From contig JAQXEU010000025.1 of assembly GCA_029250685.1 (NCBI GenBank), positions 23,536-87,535 of the forward strand: a stretch of 64,000 nucleotides of DNA. The letters are read 5' to 3'. This DNA comes from Polaribacter sp. Lineage in GTDB: Bacteria > Bacteroidota > Bacteroidia > Flavobacteriales > Flavobacteriaceae. The translations under genes and the position numbers were made by a program. Positions within the stretch are counted from its first letter, which is position 1. Each line of letters starts with the position of its first letter. Below the pieces are notes generated by a model, which saw only the letters and a program-made list of their open reading frames with translations, made no database searches and was not told the DNA's origin. Positions 21,561-31,360 of the stretch are shown here, one piece after another.

Positions 21561-22457
21561 TTACTTCATATACTCATAAACCGATTTAGAAATTTGTGCT
21601 AATTGATCTGTTCCCTTATCAAAGTCTTTTAGGTTTTTAGAAAGCAATACCAACACATATTTTTTTCCGTTTGGATGAAATACAATTGCTGCATCATGAT
21701 GCACACCAGTTATTGAACCTGTTTTATGTGCAACCTCGACTCCTTTTGGTAAATACTTCGGAATCATATCATTCCATTTTTGATCTTTTAAAATGTCAAT
21801 CATTTTATCAGAATCTTCTTTGGTTCCAGCTTTACCAGTTGCAATGGCTTTCATAATCATTAATAAATCATTTGCTGTTGTAGAATTGCTCAATCCTTTT
21901 CTAAAGGCTTTAATATCTTCTACGCCACGCAACACTTCTATTTTATCAGCTCCTAACGTTCGCATAGTTGCTGTAGTTTTCTTAGCATCAACAACTTCAA
22001 TTAAAACATTTGTTGCCAAATTGCTACTTAGAATAATCATGCTGTACATTAAATCGTACATTTTTTGTTGCGTTCCGATTTTACTATAAATAACATCATC
22101 ACTATCTACGCCAATATCCATTTTATAACTACTTCCGTCTACAATACTTTTAAACTCGTTTTTAAGCAGTATAGAATCGTTTAAATTTAGTTTTCCTTCA
22201 GATTGTTGTTTGTACAATTCAATCATCACAGGAACCTTCATGGTACTTGCAGCATGAAACTGTTCATCTGTATTAATCAAAACCTGATTACTACTATCAG
22301 ACAAATCAAAAAAAGCAACTGCAACATCTCCTTCAATCTTTGAAATCTGATTTTCTATCGAAGTTTTTAATGTGTCAATTGATTTTGAATTGTCATCACA
22401 AGAAATTGCAGCAAAAAAAAGTATACTTAAAAATATAGGTTTAATAAATTTAGCCAT
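21561..22457 (-). CDS. Serine hydrolase, class A beta-lactamase-like lipoprotein
   Basis: Lipobox AISC, SxxK (ASTMK), SSN, HKTG. Confidence 0.85.
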   Translation of the reverse strand: MAKFIKPIFLSILFFAAISCDDNSKSIDTLKTSIENQISKIEGDVAVAFFDLSDSSNQVLINTDEQFHAASTMKVPVMIELYKQQSEGKLNLNDSILLKNEFKSIVDGSSYKMDIGVDSDDVIYSKIGTQQKMYDLMYSMIILSSNLATNVLIEVVDAKKTTATMRTLGADKIEVLRGVEDIKAFRKGLSNSTTANDLLMIMKAIATGKAGTKEDSDKMIDILKDQKWNDMIPKYLPKGVEVAHKTGSITGVHHDAAIVFHPNGKKYVLVLLSKNLKDFDKGTDQLAQISKSVYEYMK

Positions 22458-22566: not shown

Positions 22567-24399
22567 TTATTTACCTTCCATTTTTTTCTTTAAGTCTGCT
22601 AAACCACTAATGTCTCCAAGAGTTGTTTTTTCAGCTTCTGCAGATTTCTTAGCAGCAGCTTTTACATTCTTCTTCTCTTCTGCTTTAAAGATAGATGTAT
22701 GAGAAACTACCACTCTTCTGTATTCTTTAGAAAATTCTAAAACTTTGAATTGTGCAGTATCTCCTTTTTCTAACTTTCCACCATCTTCTTTATCTAAGAA
22801 ACGTGTTGGTGCAAAACCTTCAACTCCATCAGCAAATGTTACAGTAGCTCCTTTATCATTTTTGTCAGAAATTGTTCCTTCATGTAAAGAGTCTATTGCG
22901 TAAGTTGCTTCGTGAGCATCCCAAGGATTGTCTTGAGTTTGTTTGTGTCCTAAGTTTAATTTACGACCTTCAACATCTAATTCTAATACTTGAACTTCTA
23001 ATTTATCACCTACAGATGTAAAATCTGATGGATGCTTAATTTTCTTAGTCCAAGATAAATCAGAAATATAAACCAATCCATCAATTCCTTCTTCTAACTC
23101 TACAAACACACCAAAATTAGTGTAGTTTCTTACTGTACCAGTATGTGTTGAACCAACAGGATATTTTTTAGTAATATCTGTCCAAGGATCTGGATGTAAT
23201 TGTTTCATCCCTAAAGACATTTTACGGTCTTCTCTATCTAACGTTAAGATTTGTGCTTCTACTTGATCACCAATTTTTACGAAATCTTGTGCAGAACGTA
23301 AATGTGTAGACCAAGACATTTCAGAAACGTGAATTAATCCTTCAACACCTTCAGAAACTTCGATGAATGCACCGTAATCAGCTAATACAACAACTTTACC
23401 AGTTATTTTATCGCCAATTTTAAGGTCTTCACTTAACGCTTCCCAAGGATGCGCAGATAATTGCTTCAATCCTAATTGAATTCTAGATTTGTTATCATCA
23501 AAGTCTAAAATTACAACGTTTAATTTTTGATCTAATTCAACAACCTCATTTGGATGATTGATTCTAGACCAAGATAAATCTGTAATATGTACTAAACCAT
23601 CAACGCCACCTAAATCAACAAATACACCATAAGAAGTAATGTTTTTAACAACACCTTCTAATACTTGTCCTTTTTCTAATTGACCAATGATTTCTTTTTT
23701 CTGTATTTCTAAATCAGCTTCGATTAATGCTTTATGAGAAACTACAACGTTTTTAAATTCGTGGTTGATTTTTACAACTTTGAATTCCATTGTTTTTTCT
23801 ACAAACTGATCGTAATCTCTAATTGGCTTCACGTCAATTTGAGAACCTGGTAAAAATGCTTCGATTCCGAATACATCAACGATCATTCCTCCTCTTGTTC
23901 TACATTTTACAAAACCATTAACGATTTCTCCTGTTTCGTGTGCATTATTAACTCTATCCCAAGCTTTAATTACTCTTGCTTTTTTGTGAGATAAAACTAA
24001 TTGACCAGAAGAATCTTCTCTTTTGTCAACTAATACTTCAACAGTATCACCAACTGCTAATGCTGGGTTGTAACGGAATTCATTTAAAGAAATAACTCCT
24101 TCAGATTTAGAATTGATATCGATAATTGCATCTCTATCAGTTAATCTTGTTACGATTCCTTCGATTACATCACGCTCGTTTACGAAACCTACAGTTCCTT
24201 CTAACGCTTTTTCGAATTCTGCCAATTTTTTTTCATCAACTGCCTCAATACCTTCTTCGTATTTGTACCAGTTAAAGTTTTCTAAAAATTCTTGTGGATT
24301 TACAGTTTCTGCAACTGTTTCTGCAACAGCTTCAGTTGCTGTTTCTTGTACTTCAGTAGCAACAACTTGCTCTTCAGTGTTTTTTGTTTCTTCAGACAT
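22567..24399 (-). CDS. rpsA: 30S ribosomal protein S1 (start re-called at ATG 24399, 610 aa)
   Basis: Six S1 repeats (GVFVDLGGVDGLVHITDLSW, YGAFIEV, FGVFVEL); TACATTTG promoter at 24527-24520 lies inside the longer ORF-track extension. Confidence 0.97.
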   Translation of the reverse strand: MSEETKNTEEQVVATEVQETATEAVAETVAETVNPQEFLENFNWYKYEEGIEAVDEKKLAEFEKALEGTVGFVNERDVIEGIVTRLTDRDAIIDINSKSEGVISLNEFRYNPALAVGDTVEVLVDKREDSSGQLVLSHKKARVIKAWDRVNNAHETGEIVNGFVKCRTRGGMIVDVFGIEAFLPGSQIDVKPIRDYDQFVEKTMEFKVVKINHEFKNVVVSHKALIEADLEIQKKEIIGQLEKGQVLEGVVKNITSYGVFVDLGGVDGLVHITDLSWSRINHPNEVVELDQKLNVVILDFDDNKSRIQLGLKQLSAHPWEALSEDLKIGDKITGKVVVLADYGAFIEVSEGVEGLIHVSEMSWSTHLRSAQDFVKIGDQVEAQILTLDREDRKMSLGMKQLHPDPWTDITKKYPVGSTHTGTVRNYTNFGVFVELEEGIDGLVYISDLSWTKKIKHPSDFTSVGDKLEVQVLELDVEGRKLNLGHKQTQDNPWDAHEATYAIDSLHEGTISDKNDKGATVTFADGVEGFAPTRFLDKEDGGKLEKGDTAQFKVLEFSKEYRRVVVSHTSIFKAEEKKNVKAAAKKSAEAEKTTLGDISGLADLKKKMEGK

Positions 24400-24599
24400 T
24401 CTGAATTTACTTTGTATCTTGTTGTTTTTCAGATTTTTAACGATAAAAACTTCAAGAGTTGTTTTTATAAATTGCTTTTTACATTTCCTTTTATAAATCT
24501 GTTCTCGTAAAAAGGAGTGCAAATGTACAAAATATTTGTAATTAAACAATTCAAACTTAAAAGATTATTTACAGAGTAACTCTCTAAAAATCAACAGTA

Positions 24600-25355
24600 T
24601 TAATCTATCCAATTTTTAAATTCTTTTACACGTTCTCTACTCACAATAATTTCAGTTTCATTATAAGAATTTAAGATAATTTTTAAACGGCTATTGGTGT
24701 ATGCAATAATATCTTTTATGGCTGAAATCTGAACAATAAATGTTCTGTTTACACGAAAGAATTTTTCGGGATCTAATTCAGTTTGAATTTGCTCTAAAGC
24801 ACCATCAACGATATAACTTCTGTTAGAATCTGCATGTAAATAAGTTGCTTTATTTTCACTAAAAAAACATTCTACATTTTCTGTAGAAATAATTTTTAAA
24901 TGTTGACCAACTTTTATCGTAAAGCGTTTTTTGAATTTTCTATCAATCGGGTTTACCAATAACTTCTTTATATCATCAAAGTTTAATTGAACTTCTTTTC
25001 TCTCTACATGTTGACTTTTATATTTATCAACCGCTGTTTTTAATTCGTCTTCATCTATCGGTTTTAATAAATAATCGATGCTATTTAATTTAAATGCTTT
25101 TAAAGCATATTCATCATAAGCGGTTGTAAAAATTATGGCACTTGTAATTGTTACGTGTTCAAAAATCTCAAAAGACAATCCGTCTGATAATTGAATGTCT
25201 AAAAAAATTAAATCTGGATGTTCGTTGTTCTGAAACCATTCAATAGATTCTTCTACAGAATGCAACATTATATTTGCTTTTACCTCTAAATCTTCTAACA
25301 TTCTGCTTAATCTTCTAGCAGCTGGTTTTTCGTCTTCAATTATTATTACATTCAT
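24600..25355 (-). CDS. LytTR family response regulator
   Basis: REC domain (IIIEDE, FLDIQL, TTAY, YLLKP) plus LytTR domain (FFRVNRTFIV). Confidence 0.95.
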   Translation of the reverse strand: MNVIIIEDEKPAARRLSRMLEDLEVKANIMLHSVEESIEWFQNNEHPDLIFLDIQLSDGLSFEIFEHVTITSAIIFTTAYDEYALKAFKLNSIDYLLKPIDEDELKTAVDKYKSQHVERKEVQLNFDDIKKLLVNPIDRKFKKRFTIKVGQHLKIISTENVECFFSENKATYLHADSNRSYIVDGALEQIQTELDPEKFFRVNRTFIVQISAIKDIIAYTNSRLKIILNSYNETEIIVSRERVKEFKNWID

Positions 25356-25361
25356 AAGTAC

Positions 25362-25682
25362 CTACAGATTATTTTGTTTATTCATTTCCTCTTTAATCTT
25401 ACGTTGTTCCCAGTTTTTACCAAATAAAAGGTTTACAAGTTGAAAAGTACTAATTCCATGAAAAATTAATATCAAACTCCACCAAAAAAACAAACGATAA
25501 TTACTGATTTCTGTAAAAGCTTCAAAGACAGAATCTCCGTATTCTATATCTTTATAAATTCTTCTTCCAATAAAAAAAAGATTAATTACAATGTAAAATG
25601 CAGCGTGTTTATAAAATCCTTTTATATTTTCTACTTGCTTTTTTGCTTTTATGTATTTATCAGTTCTATCTTTAGTTTCCAT
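25362..25682 (-). CDS. 2TM domain protein (copy 4)
   Basis: YxKAKKQV..IKGFY.H...W...IFH...FGKNWEQRKIKE pattern. Confidence 0.85.
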   Translation of the reverse strand: METKDRTDKYIKAKKQVENIKGFYKHAAFYIVINLFFIGRRIYKDIEYGDSVFEAFTEISNYRLFFWWSLILIFHGISTFQLVNLLFGKNWEQRKIKEEMNKQNNL

Positions 25683-25688
25683 AATTTA

Positions 25689-26021
25689 TTAAAATTTATA
25701 TTTACGCTCTTCTTCTTCCATGATTTGTTTCAATTTTTTCTCTTCCCAGTTTTTACCTAAAGCATTAAATCCAAATACTCCTAACCAGTGAAAAAACACT
25801 CCAATTCCCCAAAACACCCAAGTAGAATATATTCCAAAATTATTAATTACATCTTCAAAAGAATCACCTTCATCACTCATTAAACCATAAATAATAATTC
25901 CGCTTAAAAATAAATTGACAACTATATAAACAATTAAATGAATGTAAAAACCTTTTATTTTTTCTACTCTTTTTTTTGCTTTTAGGTATTTAATACCTTC
26001 AAAATTTTCTTCGTTTCTCAT
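25689..26021 (-). CDS. 2TM domain protein (copy 3)
   Basis: YLKAKKRVEKIKGFYIH...WGIGVFFHW...GKNWEEKKLK. Confidence 0.85.
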   Translation of the reverse strand: MRNEENFEGIKYLKAKKRVEKIKGFYIHLIVYIVVNLFLSGIIIYGLMSDEGDSFEDVINNFGIYSTWVFWGIGVFFHWLGVFGFNALGKNWEEKKLKQIMEEEERKYKF

Positions 26022-26027
26022 GATTTC

Positions 26028-26327
26028 TTATCTATAGTTTTCATGTTTTTCTTCTTCTTTCATAAATTCCTTAATCTTGTTTTCTTCCCAATTACTTCCT
26101 AAAAAAGGATTGTAATTATAAGTATCCATCGCGTGAAAAGCCAATCCCATTCCCCAACCAAACATAGGAAACCAAAACCAATAAAACTCAGGCACAAATT
26201 TTAGGTTTATGAATATTAAAATCGGAATCACAATACAATAAGTAATTGCATTTGCATAAAATCCTTTTAGCTTATCTACTTGTTTTTTTGCTTGTAAATA
26301 TTTTTGTTCTTTGGTAAACTCTTTCAT
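26028..26327 (-). CDS. 2TM domain protein (copy 2)
   Basis: YLQAKKQVDKLKGFY...WFWFPMFGWGMGLAFH...GSNWEENKIKE. Confidence 0.85.
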   Translation of the reverse strand: MKEFTKEQKYLQAKKQVDKLKGFYANAITYCIVIPILIFINLKFVPEFYWFWFPMFGWGMGLAFHAMDTYNYNPFLGSNWEENKIKEFMKEEEKHENYR

Positions 26328-26335
26328 GATTTCTA

Positions 26336-26638
26336 TTATTTATTTGATGAATTTTTATCTTCATCAATTAATTCTTGAATTTTTTTCTCTTCCCATTCTT
26401 TTCCGAATCCAATTTTAGAAGATCCAAAAACTAAAAACCAATGCAGTATGACAACAAATACAATTCCTGGTGCAGCAAACCAAAACCAATGATAGCCTGG
26501 TGAAAAAATTAAATTAACTGATACAATTATTGCAAGAGAAAAAACTTCTATTACAAAATGAATATAAAACCCTTTAACATCCTTTACTCTCTTTTTCGCT
26601 TTTAAATAACGTTGCTCTTCTATATATTTTTCTTCCAT
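26336..26638 (-). CDS. 2TM domain protein (copy 1)
   Basis: YLKAKKRVKDVKGFYIH...WFWF...LHW...GKEWEEKKIQE. Confidence 0.85.
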   Translation of the reverse strand: MEEKYIEEQRYLKAKKRVKDVKGFYIHFVIEVFSLAIIVSVNLIFSPGYHWFWFAAPGIVFVVILHWFLVFGSSKIGFGKEWEEKKIQELIDEDKNSSNK

Positions 26639-26645
26639 AACTTTA

Positions 26646-28010
26646 TTATTCCCAATTTGATGTTTCGTCGTTTTCTTCCATTAATTCTTTGATCTTTTTA
26701 CTTTCCCAGTTTCTTCCTAAAAACGGATTGTAATTATACACATCCAATCCATGAAATAATACTCCAATTCCCCATCCTGCCATCGGAAACCAAAACCAAT
26801 GAAACTGAGGTGATGTATATAAATTTACAAATACTAAAAACGGAATTACAATACAGTAAGACGTTATGTTTTGATAAAATTCTTTTAATTTTTCTACTTT
26901 CTCTACGGCTCTAACATAGCTAGAGTTTTCTATTTCTTCTGTATACATAATATTGTTGTTTTTCGTTAATAGTGGTAAGCTTACCCTAAAGACCGCATTA
27001 TCATTTGTGATTTCTACATTTCTCTTTGTGAGTAAATTATACCTGTCTGTAATATTTCTTAATCCAATTTTTGTGCTTTTGCCAATTGCTTCTTTAGGAC
27101 TTACATTGTTCTCAATAATCAATGAACCATTTTCTTCAAAAATTCTAAGCTTTAAAGGTTTGTTAGATGAAACCACATTGTGTTTTACTGCATTCTCTAA
27201 TAATAGTTGTAACGATAAAGGCACAATTTTTAAATTTTCATTGCTGATTTCTGACGGAATGTCAAATTGAATCGCGTCTTCAAATCGCATTTGTAATAAC
27301 TCCATATATGCTCTCGCAAAATTTAATTCTTCTGAAAGCGGAATTAACTCTTTATTTCTTTGCTCTAAAACATAACGATATACTTTAGACAACTTTGTTG
27401 TAAAGCGTTCTGCCTGCTTTGGATTTTCACCAATTAATGATGTTAACACATTTAAACTATTAAATAAAAAATGTGGATCAATCTGATTTTTTAAGGATTC
27501 AAATTTTGCTGTTTCAGTTTTTGCAACAAATTCAATTTTATTACTTTTCTGAGTTTGTGATACTTTCCATTTCAACATAAAACCTTTTGCATGGAAAAAT
27601 ATTGAAATTCCGATTGCTCCAATTACAGTGAAAATATGTACCCAAAACAATGTACCCGAAAAGAAGTTAGAGAAATCGTATCCTAACAATAATATATACT
27701 GAATATAATGTATTAGTAAAACTATAAAAACGGTATAAAAAATTGTAGAAATTGCTCCAGCTGTAATACGTTGATTCGTTTGTTCTATCCAACTCCATTT
27801 AGAATCTAAATAACTATTCAAATAACCATTTCCCAAGCCTAGTCCAAAAGAATACATTGCAGAAAATAAAAATGTTATTCCAATTCCCTTAATTGAAAAC
27901 TGTTGATTGATCAGAATAAAAACAATCCCAAATCCGATGGTTAATTTCAAACAAATTATAACATCTTTCTTAAACTTATCTAGTGTTGAATTATTATTGT
28001 TTTGGCTCAT
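26646..28010 (-). CDS. LytS/YehU-type sensor histidine kinase with C-terminal 2TM domain
   Basis: N-terminal TM helices; H-box QIDPHFLFNSLN; N-box LQLLLENAVKHN; IGLRNI; last ~100 aa are a 2TM domain. Confidence 0.92.
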   Translation of the reverse strand: MSQNNNNSTLDKFKKDVIICLKLTIGFGIVFILINQQFSIKGIGITFLFSAMYSFGLGLGNGYLNSYLDSKWSWIEQTNQRITAGAISTIFYTVFIVLLIHYIQYILLLGYDFSNFFSGTLFWVHIFTVIGAIGISIFFHAKGFMLKWKVSQTQKSNKIEFVAKTETAKFESLKNQIDPHFLFNSLNVLTSLIGENPKQAERFTTKLSKVYRYVLEQRNKELIPLSEELNFARAYMELLQMRFEDAIQFDIPSEISNENLKIVPLSLQLLLENAVKHNVVSSNKPLKLRIFEENGSLIIENNVSPKEAIGKSTKIGLRNITDRYNLLTKRNVEITNDNAVFRVSLPLLTKNNNIMYTEEIENSSYVRAVEKVEKLKEFYQNITSYCIVIPFLVFVNLYTSPQFHWFWFPMAGWGIGVLFHGLDVYNYNPFLGRNWESKKIKELMEENDETSNWE

Positions 28011-28050
28011 GGTTTTTATGTATTGTTAGAGTTTTACTTTTAAAATGCTC

Positions 28051-28479
28051 TTAAAATCTAATTTCTAAAGTTACATTTTTATCTGAAACTTCAAACTTTG
28101 AATCTTCAAAGTTTGGTGGACCAAAACTCATTGAATTATTTGAAGCGCCATAATCTTCAATCGGCATCCCGTTAGATTGAAAATCCATTTGATCATTACT
28201 ATTTGCATCGTGAAAACAAACAACTGCATAATTTCCTGGAGTTATATTTGTAAAAGTAACCGTGCTTTTGTTTCCTTTTGGAGAATCAGATTGTGTTTGG
28301 ATTGGTTTTTTCATAAAGCTATTTTTATCATATAAAGCATAACTCACTTTCCCTTTATTACTTGAAACATTTACTACAGTTACTGTAATGTTTCTTTTTT
28401 CTGTATTCGTTTTTTTAGTGGTATTTATTGATGTTTGAAGTACAACTACGAATGCTAAAATTGCTGTGATTACTTTCAT
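28051..28479 (-). CDS. DUF2141 family secreted protein
   Basis: Signal peptide; GKVSYALY, PGNYAV..FHDANSN, PIEDYGASNN, FGPPNFEDSKF. Confidence 0.85.
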   Translation of the reverse strand: MKVITAILAFVVVLQTSINTTKKTNTEKRNITVTVVNVSSNKGKVSYALYDKNSFMKKPIQTQSDSPKGNKSTVTFTNITPGNYAVVCFHDANSNDQMDFQSNGMPIEDYGASNNSMSFGPPNFEDSKFEVSDKNVTLEIRF

Positions 28480-28550
28480 GATTTCTTGTTTTAATTGTTA
28501 ATTACACTACAAAGATGTAACAACAATCTATTTTTGAAAACTAAAAGAAA

Positions 28551-28580
28551 CCGAATTGTGTTTTTTTAAGGATGAATTGT
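28551..28580 (-). promoter_or_regulatory. Candidate LytTR binding site (ACAATTCAT-N12-ACAATTCGG)
   Basis: Imperfect 9-bp direct repeat with a 12-bp spacer, about 33 nt upstream of a non-consensus -7 box (CATCTTTG, 28517-28510). Confidence 0.7.
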
Positions 28581-28585
28581 AGAAT

Positions 28586-29857
28586 TTAATTATTCAATCC
28601 TGTTTTATAAGCAGATAAAGCTCTTTCTCTGGCAAATTTATGTTCTACTATTGGTAGCGGATAAGTAAGTTCGTTTAAATCTTTCACCCAAGTATTGATG
28701 TATTTTAATTCTTTATCAAACTTTTTTATTTGCTCTGAAGGATTAAAAATTCTAAAATAAGGAGCAGAATCACAACCCGTTCCAGATGCCCATTGCCAAT
28801 TACCATTGTTTGCAGACAAATCATAATCTAATAACTTTTCAGCAAAATAAGCTTCTCCCCAACGCCAATCAATTAATAAATGCTTGCATAAAAAACCTGC
28901 TGTTATCATTCTTACTCGATTGTGCATATAACCCGTTTCATTTAACTGTCGCATCCCGGCATCAACAATCGGGTAACCCGTTTCTCCTTTACACCATTTT
29001 TGAAACTCAGCTTCGTTATTTCTCCATTCAACTTGATTGTACTTACTTTTAAAGTTTTCGGTAACAACTTTCGGAAAATGAAATAAAATCTGCATAAAAA
29101 ACTCTCTCCAAATAAGCTCACTTAAATAGGTTGCATTCGTTTTTAAAGCAATCTTTATTAGTTTTCGAGAGCTAATTAAACCAAATCGTAAATAAGGTGA
29201 AACATAAGAAGTTTGATCAATAAAAGGGAAATCTCTAATTGAATCGTATTGTTCTAAATGGTTTAAATTATATGGCTTTACTTTAATTATACTTTCTACA
29301 AATCCTATAGATTCTAAAGAAGGAAACTCCCTTTTAAATTGATAGAAGTTTGGTGAATACTTGTTTTCTGGCAATAAAATATCTTTAAACTGCAACAGCC
29401 ATTTGTTTTTATAAGGAGTAAAAACTGTGTATGGCAATCCATCATTTTTAACAATTTCAGATTCTTCAAAAACAACTTGATCTTTAAAAGAACAAACTTC
29501 AGTATTTATCGAATTTAAAAATTGTGTTATTTCTAAGTCTCTTGTTATTGCGTAAGGTTCATAGTCTTTATTGAAGAAAACTTTATCAACATTATAATCA
29601 GAAGTTAATTCTTTCCAAACCTCAATAGGTTTACCAATTTTTACAAGTAAAGATGAATTCAACTTTTTAAGTTCTGTATCAATATCTTTTAATGTCTCGT
29701 AAATAAAAGAGATTCTTGCGTCGTCTTTTTGTAAAGATTCTATAATATCAACATCAAATATAAAAAGCGGAATTACGGTTTCATTCTCTAGACTAGCCTT
29801 GAATAAAGCAACATTATCTTCTAAACGTAAATCTCTACGAAACCAAAATATGTTCAT
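28586..29857 (-). CDS. phrB: Class I CPD photolyase
   Basis: WFRRDLRLEDN, ELIWREF, TGYPIVDAGMRQL, GYMHNRVRM, ANNGNWQW, RIFNP. Confidence 0.93.
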   Translation of the reverse strand: MNIFWFRRDLRLEDNVALFKASLENETVIPLFIFDVDIIESLQKDDARISFIYETLKDIDTELKKLNSSLLVKIGKPIEVWKELTSDYNVDKVFFNKDYEPYAITRDLEITQFLNSINTEVCSFKDQVVFEESEIVKNDGLPYTVFTPYKNKWLLQFKDILLPENKYSPNFYQFKREFPSLESIGFVESIIKVKPYNLNHLEQYDSIRDFPFIDQTSYVSPYLRFGLISSRKLIKIALKTNATYLSELIWREFFMQILFHFPKVVTENFKSKYNQVEWRNNEAEFQKWCKGETGYPIVDAGMRQLNETGYMHNRVRMITAGFLCKHLLIDWRWGEAYFAEKLLDYDLSANNGNWQWASGTGCDSAPYFRIFNPSEQIKKFDKELKYINTWVKDLNELTYPLPIVEHKFARERALSAYKTGLNN

Positions 29858-30337
29858 TTATTTAAAAATAGTATCTAAAACTTCTTCTCTGTATTCAAAA
29901 ATAGATTGTAGTTGCTTTTTGATAAATAATGTTTGTGCAATTGCACCAAGAAATCCAAAAGGAATTTTATATGAAATCTTATCTTTCATTAAGGTTTTTC
30001 CGTTTGACAACTCTTCAAAAAAATGTTCGTGATGCCACATAGAATAAGGTCCAAAACGTTGTTCATCAATAAAAAATTCACGCTCTTTTACTGCCGTAAT
30101 TTCTGTAACCCAATTAGTTTTCACAAAAGGCACAGGAGAAACTTTATAAGTAATAATCTGGCCTTGATATGCTTTTTTATCAACCTTAGATGTAATATTA
30201 AAACCCATTTTTGGTGGAGTAATACTTGATAAATTTTCAGGAGACGAAAAATAATCCCACGCTGCTGCTAACGGAATGTTTAATTCTTGAGAGGCTTCTA
30301 ACGTATAAATTCCTGAATGTTTAGAGAACTTTATCAT
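29858..30337 (-). CDS. SRPBCC family protein
   Basis: W.FFSSPENL..ITP, WVTEIT, FIDEQRFGPY..W.HEH.F. Confidence 0.85.
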   Translation of the reverse strand: MIKFSKHSGIYTLEASQELNIPLAAAWDYFSSPENLSSITPPKMGFNITSKVDKKAYQGQIITYKVSPVPFVKTNWVTEITAVKEREFFIDEQRFGPYSMWHHEHFFEELSNGKTLMKDKISYKIPFGFLGAIAQTLFIKKQLQSIFEYREEVLDTIFK

Positions 30338-30882
30338 TACTTTAAATGCTTTGTTATTTTTCTACTCATTGGTTTTGTTAGAGAGAAGTAATAATCTATA
30401 AAACCTCCATTTTCATCAACCAAATACTTTTGAAAATTCCATTTTACAGAAGAATTTTTAACACCATTATTTTCTTTTTTTGTCAACCAAGAATATAATG
30501 GATGTTGGTTTTCACCTTTTACGTCAACTTTTTCGGTGATTAAAAAAGTCACACCATAATTTAATTTACAAAAGGATTGTATTTCTGTTGCAGTTCCAGG
30601 TTCTTGTCCGCCAAACTGATTTGATGGTACTCCAATTATCATTAATTTATCTTTATACAATTCGTATAACTCTTGCAAACCTTCATACTGTGGAGTAAAT
30701 CCGCATTCTGAGGCAACATTTACAAACAATATTTTTTTTCCTTTAAAATTAGCTAAATTGATTTTCTCACCAGAAATACTATTGATTTCTAACTTGTAGA
30801 ATGATTGATTCATTTCCATTTTATTCGTATTACTTATTAGATTTAGTCCTATTATTAAGAAAATTACCTGAAAGTACTTCAT
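30337..30882 (-). CDS. Glutathione peroxidase (Cys type), with signal-like N-terminus
   Basis: NVASECGFTPQY, PSNQFGGQEPG, KWNFQKYL. Confidence 0.93.
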   Translation of the reverse strand: MKYFQVIFLIIGLNLISNTNKMEMNQSFYKLEINSISGEKINLANFKGKKILFVNVASECGFTPQYEGLQELYELYKDKLMIIGVPSNQFGGQEPGTATEIQSFCKLNYGVTFLITEKVDVKGENQHPLYSWLTKKENNGVKNSSVKWNFQKYLVDENGGFIDYYFSLTKPMSRKITKHLK

Positions 30883-30886
30883 CTTA

Positions 30887-31360
30887 TTAATTGTATAAAA
30901 TTATATATCCGTTTAAACTTGATGCTATTGTTAACCAAATTAAATATGGCGCAATTAATAGTGTAAACCACTTTAATTGTTTTAGATAGTTGAATGTAAA
31001 AAAACCAACTAATAACCATAAGCTCATAATTACTACAAACCCTGTAATTGTTAAATGTTGATTAAAGAAAACGTAATTCCAACTTACATTAAGCAACCAT
31101 TGAACAACAAATACTTTTACCAAAAAATTATTTCTTTCTTCAAATTGTAAAGCAAGCTTTGTCATATAAAAAGAAAAGAAAACCATAATAGAGAACCAAG
31201 CCGCTCCAAAAACCCAACCTTCGGGTGTCCAAGGTGCTTTGTTTAAGTTATAATACCATTCTGAAGTTGATCCATCATCCATTAAAAGAAGTCCAATTCC
31301 TAATGCTCCAAAATTCGTAGCAAGAAAAAGTAGAAATAATAGGTATTTATTTTTCATCAT
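30887..31360 (-). CDS. tspO: TspO/MBR family tryptophan-rich sensory protein
   Basis: WY..LNKAPWTPEGWVFG.AW, LN..W..VFF, PYL.WL..A..LN. Confidence 0.9.
   Translation of the reverse strand: MMKNKYLLFLLFLATNFGALGIGLLLMDDGSTSEWYYNLNKAPWTPEGWVFGAAWFSIMVFFSFYMTKLALQFEERNNFLVKVFVVQWLLNVSWNYVFFNQHLTITGFVVIMSLWLLVGFFTFNYLKQLKWFTLLIAPYLIWLTIASSLNGYIILYN

Follow-up and report, generated by a model that had tools for sequence, protein, structure and literature searches.

A LytS-family/LytTR operon of Polaribacter with an array of 2TM membrane proteins and a predicted DUF2141 output

We analysed a stretch of 64,000 nucleotides (nt) from Polaribacter sp. (contig JAQXEU010000025.1 of assembly GCA_029250685.1, forward strand, positions 23,536 to 87,535), which is called the window below. 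The open reading frame (ORF) listing of the window contains seven genes lying head to tail on the minus strand at 24600-28479, and they encode a DUF2141 protein, a histidine kinase ending in a two-transmembrane (2TM) module of family PF13239, four free 2TM proteins and a LytTR response regulator. We consider these genes an autoregulated LytS-family/LytTR unit in which the membrane signalling part would be a hetero-oligomer of 2TM hairpins, and we give this reading a probability of about one half. The features of the locus, in window coordinates and in the direction of reading, are as follows.

28551-28580, minus strand: LytTR-type box, composed of a first direct repeat (DR1) ACAATTCAT at 28580-28572, a 12-nt spacer and a second direct repeat (DR2) ACAATTCGG at 28559-28551
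28510-28517, minus strand: element resembling a -7 box, CATCTTTG, 33 nt 3' of DR2 and 30 nt 5' of the DUF2141 ATG
28051-28479, minus strand: DUF2141 protein, 142 amino acids (aa), PF09912 with E 5e-30
26646-28010, minus strand: kinase, 454 aa, PF06580 and PF13239
27585-27995, minus strand: N-terminal four-helix membrane domain of the kinase, residues about 6-142, from AlphaFold helices and hydropathy
26961-27509, minus strand: catalytic core of the kinase, with the PF06580 histidine box and the ATP-binding domain
26667-26933, minus strand: kinase-borne 2TM module, residues 360-448, short WFWF loop, PF13239 with E 5e-30
26336-26638, minus strand: free 2TM protein 1, 100 aa, short loop, PF13239 with E 1e-17
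26028-26327, minus strand: free 2TM protein 2, 99 aa, short loop, PF13239
25689-26021, minus strand: free 2TM protein 3, 110 aa, long acidic loop, PF13239
25362-25682, minus strand: free 2TM protein 4, 106 aa, long acidic loop, PF13239, its gene adjoining the regulator gene
24600-25355, minus strand: response regulator with receiver and LytTR domains, 251 aa, PF00072 with E 5e-14 and PF04397 with E 6e-21

The genes 3' of the kinase follow each other at gaps of 7, 8, 6, 6 and 6 nt, and the gap between the DUF2141 and kinase genes is 40 nt. A scan of the window found no terminator-like sites on the coding strand within the unit, and no other 2TM ORFs were present in the 64 kb. A tight operon of DUF2141, kinase, four 2TM proteins and LytTR regulator had been proposed in an earlier interpretation made from the letters of this DNA (the sequence-only reading), and the coordinates and Pfam matches agree with it throughout. 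Absent from that interpretation were the promoter box, the HusA and TonB-receptor link in other genera, and the kinases with an N-terminal 2TM module, all of which are described below. The DUF2141 protein scored 104.2 bits against PF09912 (gathering threshold 24.4 bits), covered model positions 1-110 of 112, and showed by hydropathy a hydrophobic signal-like segment at residues 3-21. No solved structure related to DUF2141 by sequence was found, and of the three papers that our literature search found to mention the domain, none is functional.

The kinase matched PF06580 at residues 168-246 (E 8e-26) and PF13239 at residues 367-445 (E 5e-30). The histidine box DPHFLFNSLN contains the phospho-accepting H180, and D178-P-H180-F-L-F-N is invariant among 104 homologues, as are the N box ENAVKHN (E272-N273...K276-H277-N278) and G316. 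The sequence-only reading had placed the 2TM module after an ATPase domain. Pfam confirmed the position of the module; Pfam made no HATPase_c call in the window kinase, yet the ATPase assignment holds through the N- and G-box residues and through the top Foldseek match of the kinase model, the kinase domain of GanS (6swj, E 2e-9, 29% identity), and relatives of the kinase carry PF02518. Because the residues of the His, N and G boxes are invariant in the 104 homologues, the kinase should be active.

The AlphaFold2 model of the kinase, built on a 104-sequence alignment, reached a mean predicted local distance difference test (pLDDT) of 76.5 and a predicted template modelling score (pTM) of 0.41. 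It contains four N-terminal helices (6-35, 40-71, 78-108 and 119-174; pLDDT 82-95), of which the fourth continues into the kinase helix bearing His180, and Y53, N61, R81 and G85 are conserved in this domain in the homologue alignment. After a disordered linker (351-362), the kinase-borne 2TM module follows with helices 360-399, 407-424 and 435-448. Pfam matched neither a 5TM-Lyt nor a GAF domain in the kinase, the N-terminus of which is formed by the four helices instead. For the regulator, the best NCBIfam models were LytR (101 bits against a cut-off of 375) and BtsR (95 against 246), and no NCBIfam model matched the DUF2141 protein, the kinase or the 2TM proteins. As 5TM-Lyt and GAF are missing and the regulator falls below the equivalog cut-offs, the pair belongs to the LytS-family/LytTR class and is not orthologous to LytS or BtsS. 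The closest named relative of this Polaribacter kinase is that of P. gochangensis (85% identity).

Against PF13239 (gathering threshold 24.8 bits), the five 2TM modules of the window scored 103.8, 64.4, 99.9, 79.9 and 68.5 bits, with model positions 2-78/79 covered and E values from 1e-17 to 8e-29 for the four free proteins. In their alignment the columns Y, A, V, K, F, Y ... H ... G, W, E, K are invariant, which are the very columns of the shared motif Y..A...V...K.FY...H...G..WE..K read earlier from the letters. The alignment likewise upheld the division of the free copies into two with short WFWF loops, as also found in the kinase copy, and two with longer, net-acidic loops (DEGDSFEDVINNFG and EYGDSVFEAFTE), and the order in the window is short (kinase), short, short, long, long. 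Since the kinase-borne module follows a cytoplasmic domain, we infer that the module ends are cytoplasmic and that the loop is periplasmic. By the positive-inside rule, this orientation also agrees with the basic character of the N-terminal helix and with the acidity of the long loops in the free proteins. A literature search on PF13239 returned no paper, the term "2TM domain" together with LytTR giving unrelated uses only, and no paper on this locus type was found either.

Identity among the window paralogues is 30-57%. Free 2TM protein 2 is the most similar to the kinase-borne module (57%), and its orthologues are 79-81% identical with a ratio of nonsynonymous to synonymous substitution rates (dN/dS) of 0.04-0.08; the corresponding values are 75-77% and 0.17-0.36 for free 2TM protein 3, and 60-75% and 0.14-0.29 for free 2TM protein 4, with dS near saturation. 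By this measure three of the four free paralogues appear to be individually kept (dN/dS <0.4), and these three, which have clear orthologues, change their amino acids 3-4 times faster than the kinase or the regulator. Free 2TM protein 1 is the fastest-evolving copy; its position in the array varies between relatives, and its closest relatives are only 56-60% identical.

For the comparison we sampled one genome per species carrying the kinase, which gave 80 loci, 74 of them complete, and together with GC-rich metagenomic loci the whole comparison covered about 85 related loci (labels beginning with L below). The sampled loci came from about ten genera of Flavobacteriaceae, among them Polaribacter, Tenacibaculum, Flavobacterium, Lutibacter, Kordia, Salinimicrobium, Gelidibacter and Planktosalinus. 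All 74 complete loci have the same order on one strand: the kinase gene with its 2TM module, one to seven free 2TM genes, and the LytTR regulator gene. One free module was found in 7 loci, two in 23, three in 10, four in 16, five in 12, six in 5 and seven in 1. The sequence-only reading had stated that similar loci occur in flavobacteria and had suggested a copy-number survey.

Through the clustering of 336 modules, four main classes were obtained. Short-loop class A contains all 80 kinase-borne modules and 114 free ones, short-loop class C contains 30 modules from Flavobacterium only, and the long-loop classes B and D contain 97 and 12 modules, respectively. The class of 97, to which free 2TM protein 3 belongs, is distributed over 81 loci, and free 2TM protein 4 belongs to a class specific to Polaribacter and Tenacibaculum. 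In almost every locus the kinase module comes first, then the short-loop copies, then one or more long-loop copies and finally the regulator. At its smallest, the system is composed of the kinase and one long-loop protein together with the regulator, and the additional copies are mostly short-loop paralogues. The kinase-borne modules form one orthologous group, as in 80 of 80 cases the nearest matches are kinase-borne modules from other genera and not the free modules of the same locus; therefore the fusion is old and has not been homogenised with the free copies, and gene conversion keeping the kinase module like the free copies is ruled out. The small genes are not precursors of peptide pheromones, as they encode conserved PF13239 membrane hairpins. 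Weak evidence that free and kinase-borne modules work together came from a mirror-tree analysis, in which kinase-borne and long-loop modules gave a partial correlation of 0.49 after the kinase core had been removed.

The variation in copy number raises the question of whether the free 2TM proteins are mostly redundant tandem duplicates, with only the long-loop copy of importance and no meaning in the number and mix of the others. Seven complete loci manage with a single free copy, the fast-evolving free module 1 of the window does not keep a fixed place in the array, and the number (one to seven) shifts between close relatives. In the metagenomic relative L013, for example, the kinase is 93-94% identical to that of the window and five free 2TM genes stand in place of four, the surplus being one more long-loop copy; the free modules of L013 are 75-82% identical to those of the window, so turnover is much more rapid in the array than in the kinase. 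However, three of the four window copies have orthologues at dN/dS 0.04-0.36, to be set against a paralogue identity of 30-57%, and the distinct classes A, C, B and D recur in different genera, following one another in almost the same order. We therefore regard plain redundancy as unlikely, and a complex of 2TM hairpins with distinct members as the better account of the array.

Fusions of the module provide further evidence for such a complex. A profile built from the five window modules retrieved 3134 cluster representatives, and the best 150 of these comprised 102 single modules, 24 tandem proteins, one triple protein, 13 kinases with one C-terminal module, four kinases with two, and two kinases with an N-terminal module. 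Among the 80 loci, three contained tandem 2TM-2TM ORFs, and one tandem lineage can be followed down to 42% identity. The AlphaFold model of a natural tandem protein, made with an alignment of tandem proteins only, had a mean pLDDT of 81, a pTM of 0.59 and membrane helices above 90, which means high local and moderate overall confidence. A search for relatives of this tandem model in the PDB gave no match (best E 1.3).

In metagenomic contigs rich in guanine and cytosine (GC; 55-62%), we found kinases of 305-398 aa whose sole membrane part is an N-terminal 2TM module. Its WEERK helix runs unbroken into the segment leading to the histidine box, so that, judged from the domain order, the module is placed as an input domain would be. 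In three of the four loci with such kinases, a free 2TM gene lies directly 5' of the kinase gene and a LytTR regulator gene 3' of it; two of the three free genes overlap the kinase gene by 4 nt, and the other is 13 nt away.

These kinases also bear on another explanation, by which the C-terminal 2TM module packs on the four-helix domain of its own kinase and completes a six-helix sensor, while the free 2TM proteins displace it as purely inhibitory decoys. The kinase does have membrane helices at both ends, its linker to the module (351-362) is short and disordered, and the free copy with 57% identity would be a plausible mimic of the kinase module. On the other side, the monomer model gives no confident inter-domain arrangement, the universal partner is of the long-loop class, which is the least like the kinase module (30-40%) and no mimic of it, and the N-terminal-2TM kinases still have a free partner although they lack the four-helix domain. 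We consider the decoy arrangement distinctly unlikely.

Returning to the hetero-oligomer, the sequence-only reading had proposed that the free 2TM proteins associate with the kinase-borne copy as interchangeable subunits of a combinatorial input layer. The association is supported comparatively by the co-occurrence in 74 of 74 loci, the three of four N-terminal-2TM loci, the tight or overlapping gene spacing, the fusions and the tandem model, and this evidence as a whole supports a complex of free and kinase-borne 2TM modules. The interchangeable and combinatorial part gained no such support, and the data indicate instead an ordered design with a universal long-loop partner encoded next to the regulator gene and short-loop extras that are lineage-specific.

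The distribution of histidines may add to this picture. Of the kinase-borne, short-loop and long-loop modules, 90-98% have a His in the second transmembrane helix (TM2). At the start of the first transmembrane helix (TM1; FYxH), His occurs in 100% of the long-loop modules and Asn in 90% of the kinase-borne ones, and the long-loop free module always has both (100% at the TM1 start and 97% in TM2). The window kinase module has Asn at the TM1 start together with the TM2 His, and free 2TM protein 3 belongs to a class with His at both positions. In the GC-rich systems a partner without the His pair is matched by a partner with both, and P0374, a kinase of this type that has no partner, has both itself. 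In every pair examined at least one partner has His at the TM1 start and in TM2, the other often being degenerate. This residue pattern fits an asymmetric pair.

About 100 nt 5' of the DUF2141 gene we found a direct repeat of 9-12-9 layout, ACAATTCAT-N12-ACAATTCGG, which has no second occurrence in the window when up to 3 mismatches are allowed and is kept at about the same distance from DUF2141 in Polaribacter, Tenacibaculum and Lutibacter. ComE boxes have the same layout of 9 bp, 12 bp and 9 bp (PMC4005675), and the proximal repeat lies at about -50 in the window, to be compared with about -60 for AgrA (PMC4227749). A strict pattern of the box gave 122 matches in the 1.26 Mb of kinase-selected loci, against 1.35 in shuffled sequences, and 103 of the 122 were located 30-320 nt 5' of a gene for DUF2141, a TonB-dependent receptor or a 207-aa protein. 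The box precedes 33 of 38 DUF2141 genes, 38 of 45 receptor genes and 31 of 54 genes of the 207-aa protein, and it stands directly 5' of the kinase gene in only one of 79 cases. The LytTR regulator is the only DNA-binding protein common to the loci across the sampled genera, and we infer that it binds the direct repeat of its own operon, which would be its predicted site.

Between the box and the DUF2141 start codon, CATCTTTG may serve as a promoter element. The consensus of the Bacteroidetes -7 box is TAnnTTTG, and a block nAnnTTTG(T/C)nGTGTAATTAA occurs at the same place in related loci. A sigma-70 scan gave 24 sites against 24.4 in shuffled sequences and is uninformative for a Bacteroidetes genome.

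Two further repeats were observed. A third variant of the box, ACAATTCGGTTTTCAATAATAACGGTTC, lies about 700-970 nt 5' of DUF2141 or of the 207-aa protein gene in many Flavobacterium loci (L030, L031, L033-L035, L038, L042, L045, L046, L049, L055, L059 and L060; for example L031:6087), where it falls near or within the 3' end of the TonB-receptor gene. In the GC-rich N-terminal-2TM locus L082, a direct repeat CCGTTGGCG with a 20-nt period (L082:5566-5597) is located 5' of the free 2TM gene; it recalls the AlgR-type sites of LytTR regulators and suggests autoregulation there too.

The sequence-only reading had offered DUF2141 as either ligand or output of the system. The conserved box speaks for the output, and so does Kordia jejudonensis, in which the DUF2141 gene is on the other strand at a distance of 4.5 kb from the kinase gene and has its own box 115 nt 5' (L068:3320-3435); nothing supports the ligand. 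This relocated gene is the clearest sign that DUF2141 would belong to the regulon beyond its operon neighbourhood. Because a LytTR-type box precedes DUF2141 and accompanies the relocated gene too, DUF2141 looks like the output of an autoregulated operon.

The box is also found, in Flavobacterium, Kordia and other genera, 5' of two genes immediately upstream of the kinase on the same strand. One encodes a TonB-dependent receptor of 719 aa, recognised by Pfam, and the other the secreted protein of 207 aa, which has no Pfam match and resembles HusA. Compared with the HusA structure in the PDB (6bqs), the single sequence gave E 1.6e-7 and a nine-sequence profile E 6.9e-14; by this profile match the protein is homologous over its full length to Porphyromonas gingivalis HusA. 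The HusA-like gene lies directly 5' of the kinase in 54 loci, and in 45 of them the receptor gene is beside it. For a HusA-like protein of about 21 kDa from Flavobacterium quisquiliarum, in vitro binding of protoporphyrin IX, of its zinc complex and of hemin has been reported (bioRxiv 10.64898/2026.04.07.716877), and this protein may belong to the same family as the 207-aa protein. In most sampled genera the 2TM kinase system thus sits with a Hus-like pair and DUF2141 and is predicted by the box to control them. Because the same box precedes the receptor and HusA-like genes beside the kinase, what the system most likely serves is the uptake of porphyrin, haem or a related compound, which is the weakest step of our interpretation for the window.

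From these data we might propose how an autoregulated unit with a hetero-oligomer of 2TM hairpins would work. Each module would run from a basic cytoplasmic helix (Y..A..KRV...KGFY) through TM1, a periplasmic loop and TM2 (WGxG...H) to a cytoplasmic WEE.K helix. The free modules would be made in step with the kinase. In the membrane they would pack onto its 2TM module, and this packing would set how freely the tethered catalytic domain reaches His180, the free modules acting as co-sensor or modulator subunits, either activating or inhibiting. The long-loop protein would be the core partner, with its periplasmic loop as a candidate sensing surface, and the short-loop extra copies would be lineage-specific additions that tune the complex. 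The phosphorylated regulator would bind the 9-12-9 repeat just 5' of the DUF2141 promoter and activate DUF2141; since no terminator-like site was found on the coding strand, read-through could then extend to the kinase, the array and the regulator itself and produce a positive feedback.

A more far-reaching version gives the hetero-oligomer itself the sensing of the ligand. By this proposal a tetrapyrrole, haem or metal would be sensed in the membrane through the His pair at the cytoplasmic-leaflet ends of TM1 (FYxH) and TM2 (WGxG...H), and the array would supply alternative ligand-binding subunits for one kinase, a combinatorial receptor controlling porphyrin uptake genes; we hold it to be very doubtful.

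The free 2TM proteins might also be outputs, small induced membrane effectors in the manner of the LytSR-induced lrgAB, the kinase copy being a mere second anchor. They do lie within the autoregulated unit and would be induced along with DUF2141, and there is no structural relative hinting at signalling. However, their genes are always between the kinase and regulator genes, away from the box-controlled output genes, they have repeatedly been fused to the kinase itself, and elsewhere 2TM is the sole membrane part of the kinase, right before the His-box helix in the input position, all of which make the effector role very unlikely. Finally, that the direct repeat is bound by another regulator, DUF2141 being a mere neighbour and the two-component system having other targets, could draw on the near absence of the box before the kinase gene itself (1/79), but is highly improbable given the layout typical of LytTR regulators (PMC4005675), the 103 of 122 boxes that precede the three families flanking the system in loci chosen only for the kinase (chance expectation 1.35), and a LytTR regulator as the only DNA-binding protein common to the sampled genera.

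Several points weigh against the autoregulated 2TM hetero-oligomer and its connection to porphyrin uptake. With a pTM of 0.41, the kinase monomer model gives no reliable position of the C-terminal module with respect to the N-terminal membrane domain, and the module might pack on that domain instead. The N-terminal-2TM kinase P0374 (L083:5001-5945 and L084) has no adjoining free 2TM gene, and the domain can therefore do without a free partner. The assignment of the box to the regulator is drawn solely from their co-occurrence. The Polaribacter window sequence was matched solely in marine metagenome DNA runs, and there was no usable RNA run. For the porphyrin link, no homologue of HusA or of the receptor was found in the window at E <= 1e-3, so we do not file it as a Hus locus, and the link is a lead here and not a finding. 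The neighbours of the GC-rich loci are unrelated (a phospholipase A1 and a hydrolase), and the link may therefore belong to some lineages and not to the module. The hus operon of P. gingivalis itself contains a MarR-type regulator, HusC, and a membrane protein of unknown function, HusD, and no LytTR system (PMC12094164).

We also looked at the surroundings of the unit. On the 5' side of the DUF2141 promoter, four co-directional genes occupy 28586-31360 on the minus strand, and from reading their sequences we take them to encode a photolyase/cryptochrome-like protein (423 aa), an SRPBCC-like protein (159 aa), a glutathione-peroxidase-like protein (181 aa) and a TspO-like five-helix membrane protein (157 aa). 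The run from photolyase to TspO-like gene also stands 5' of DUF2141 in three other Polaribacter loci (L001-L003) and does not in Tenacibaculum. TspO proteins bind tetrapyrroles, and this tie of the TspO-like neighbour may or may not bear on the HusA link. On the 3' side of the regulator, the minus strand carries a ribosomal protein S1-like gene (22567-24549), whose longest ORF begins at TTG and is probably over-extended at the N-terminus, and a gene for a secreted protein that resembles serine beta-lactamases and has an STMK motif (21561-22457); these two neighbours are unrelated to the 2TM system. Four loci of Flavobacterium type have an inserted gene of about 500 aa between array and regulator (L024:10134-11624, L027:10012-11547, L028:10790-12310 and L050:10056-11546). 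Its product is a membrane protein with several helices and, judged by eye, resembles glycosyltransferases of the ArnT/PMT type. In L079 the insert at this junction encodes a secreted thioredoxin-like protein of 397 aa instead.

Clustered at 50% identity, the family PF13239 has more than 3,000 representatives. Our analysis gives it a proposed role, that of a partner or input module of LytS-family kinases, with a minimal system of kinase, one long-loop protein and regulator. It also provides a candidate regulator for porphyrin or haem uptake in Flavobacterium, Kordia and their relatives, for which genes we found no regulator reported in the literature, and it places DUF2141 in a predicted regulon for the first time. 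The design appears unusual and is directly testable, the mechanism being proposed on comparative grounds only.

Compared with LytS/LytR, BtsS/BtsR and YpdA/YpdB, the system has the same PF06580 His box and ATP-binding kinase and the same regulator with receiver and LytTR domains. Unlike LytS, BtsS and YpdA, the kinase has a four-helix N-terminus and a C-terminal 2TM module in place of a 5TM-Lyt/7TM sensor and a GAF domain, and the genes of one to seven free 2TM proteins separate those of kinase and regulator. BtsSR induces the transporter for its own signal (PMC10653868), and the 2TM system is similarly predicted to induce uptake genes. With the Hus system it shares, in related loci, the HusA homologue and the TonB receptor, whereas DUF2141 is not part of the described Hus system. 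HdrRM and BrsRM also combine a LytTR regulator with an adjoining small membrane protein, but there the regulator lacks a receiver and is held by the membrane inhibitor without any kinase (PMC6193735), while a full kinase-receiver phosphorelay is encoded here.

ComD/ComE and AgrC/AgrA resemble the system in the paired 9-bp direct repeats with a 12-nt spacer near the promoter, the predicted self-activation and the small genes beside the kinase. In contrast to them, the small genes here encode membrane hairpins with conserved cytoplasmic helices and not exported peptide precursors; and unlike the peptide-pheromone systems in general (Agr, Com, Pln), the kinase is of the PF06580 and not the HPK10 type, and there are no leader peptides and no genes for processing or export.

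The closest functional likeness is probably to small membrane proteins such as LiaF with LiaS, YycH/YycI with WalK, and MgrB or SafA with PhoQ, which are often encoded in the same operon and act on the kinase through membrane or juxtamembrane contacts. By analogy, the free 2TM proteins most likely work like these accessory proteins of kinases (LiaF, YycHI, MgrB). They differ from LiaF, YycHI, MgrB and SafA in being paralogous to a domain of the kinase itself, in forming arrays of up to seven, and in being fused to each other and to the kinase; to our knowledge, none of LiaF, YycH/YycI, MgrB and SafA has such a self-similar design. A kinase that bears a membrane module and would recruit one to seven free paralogues of it has no described parallel that we know of among bacterial two-component systems.

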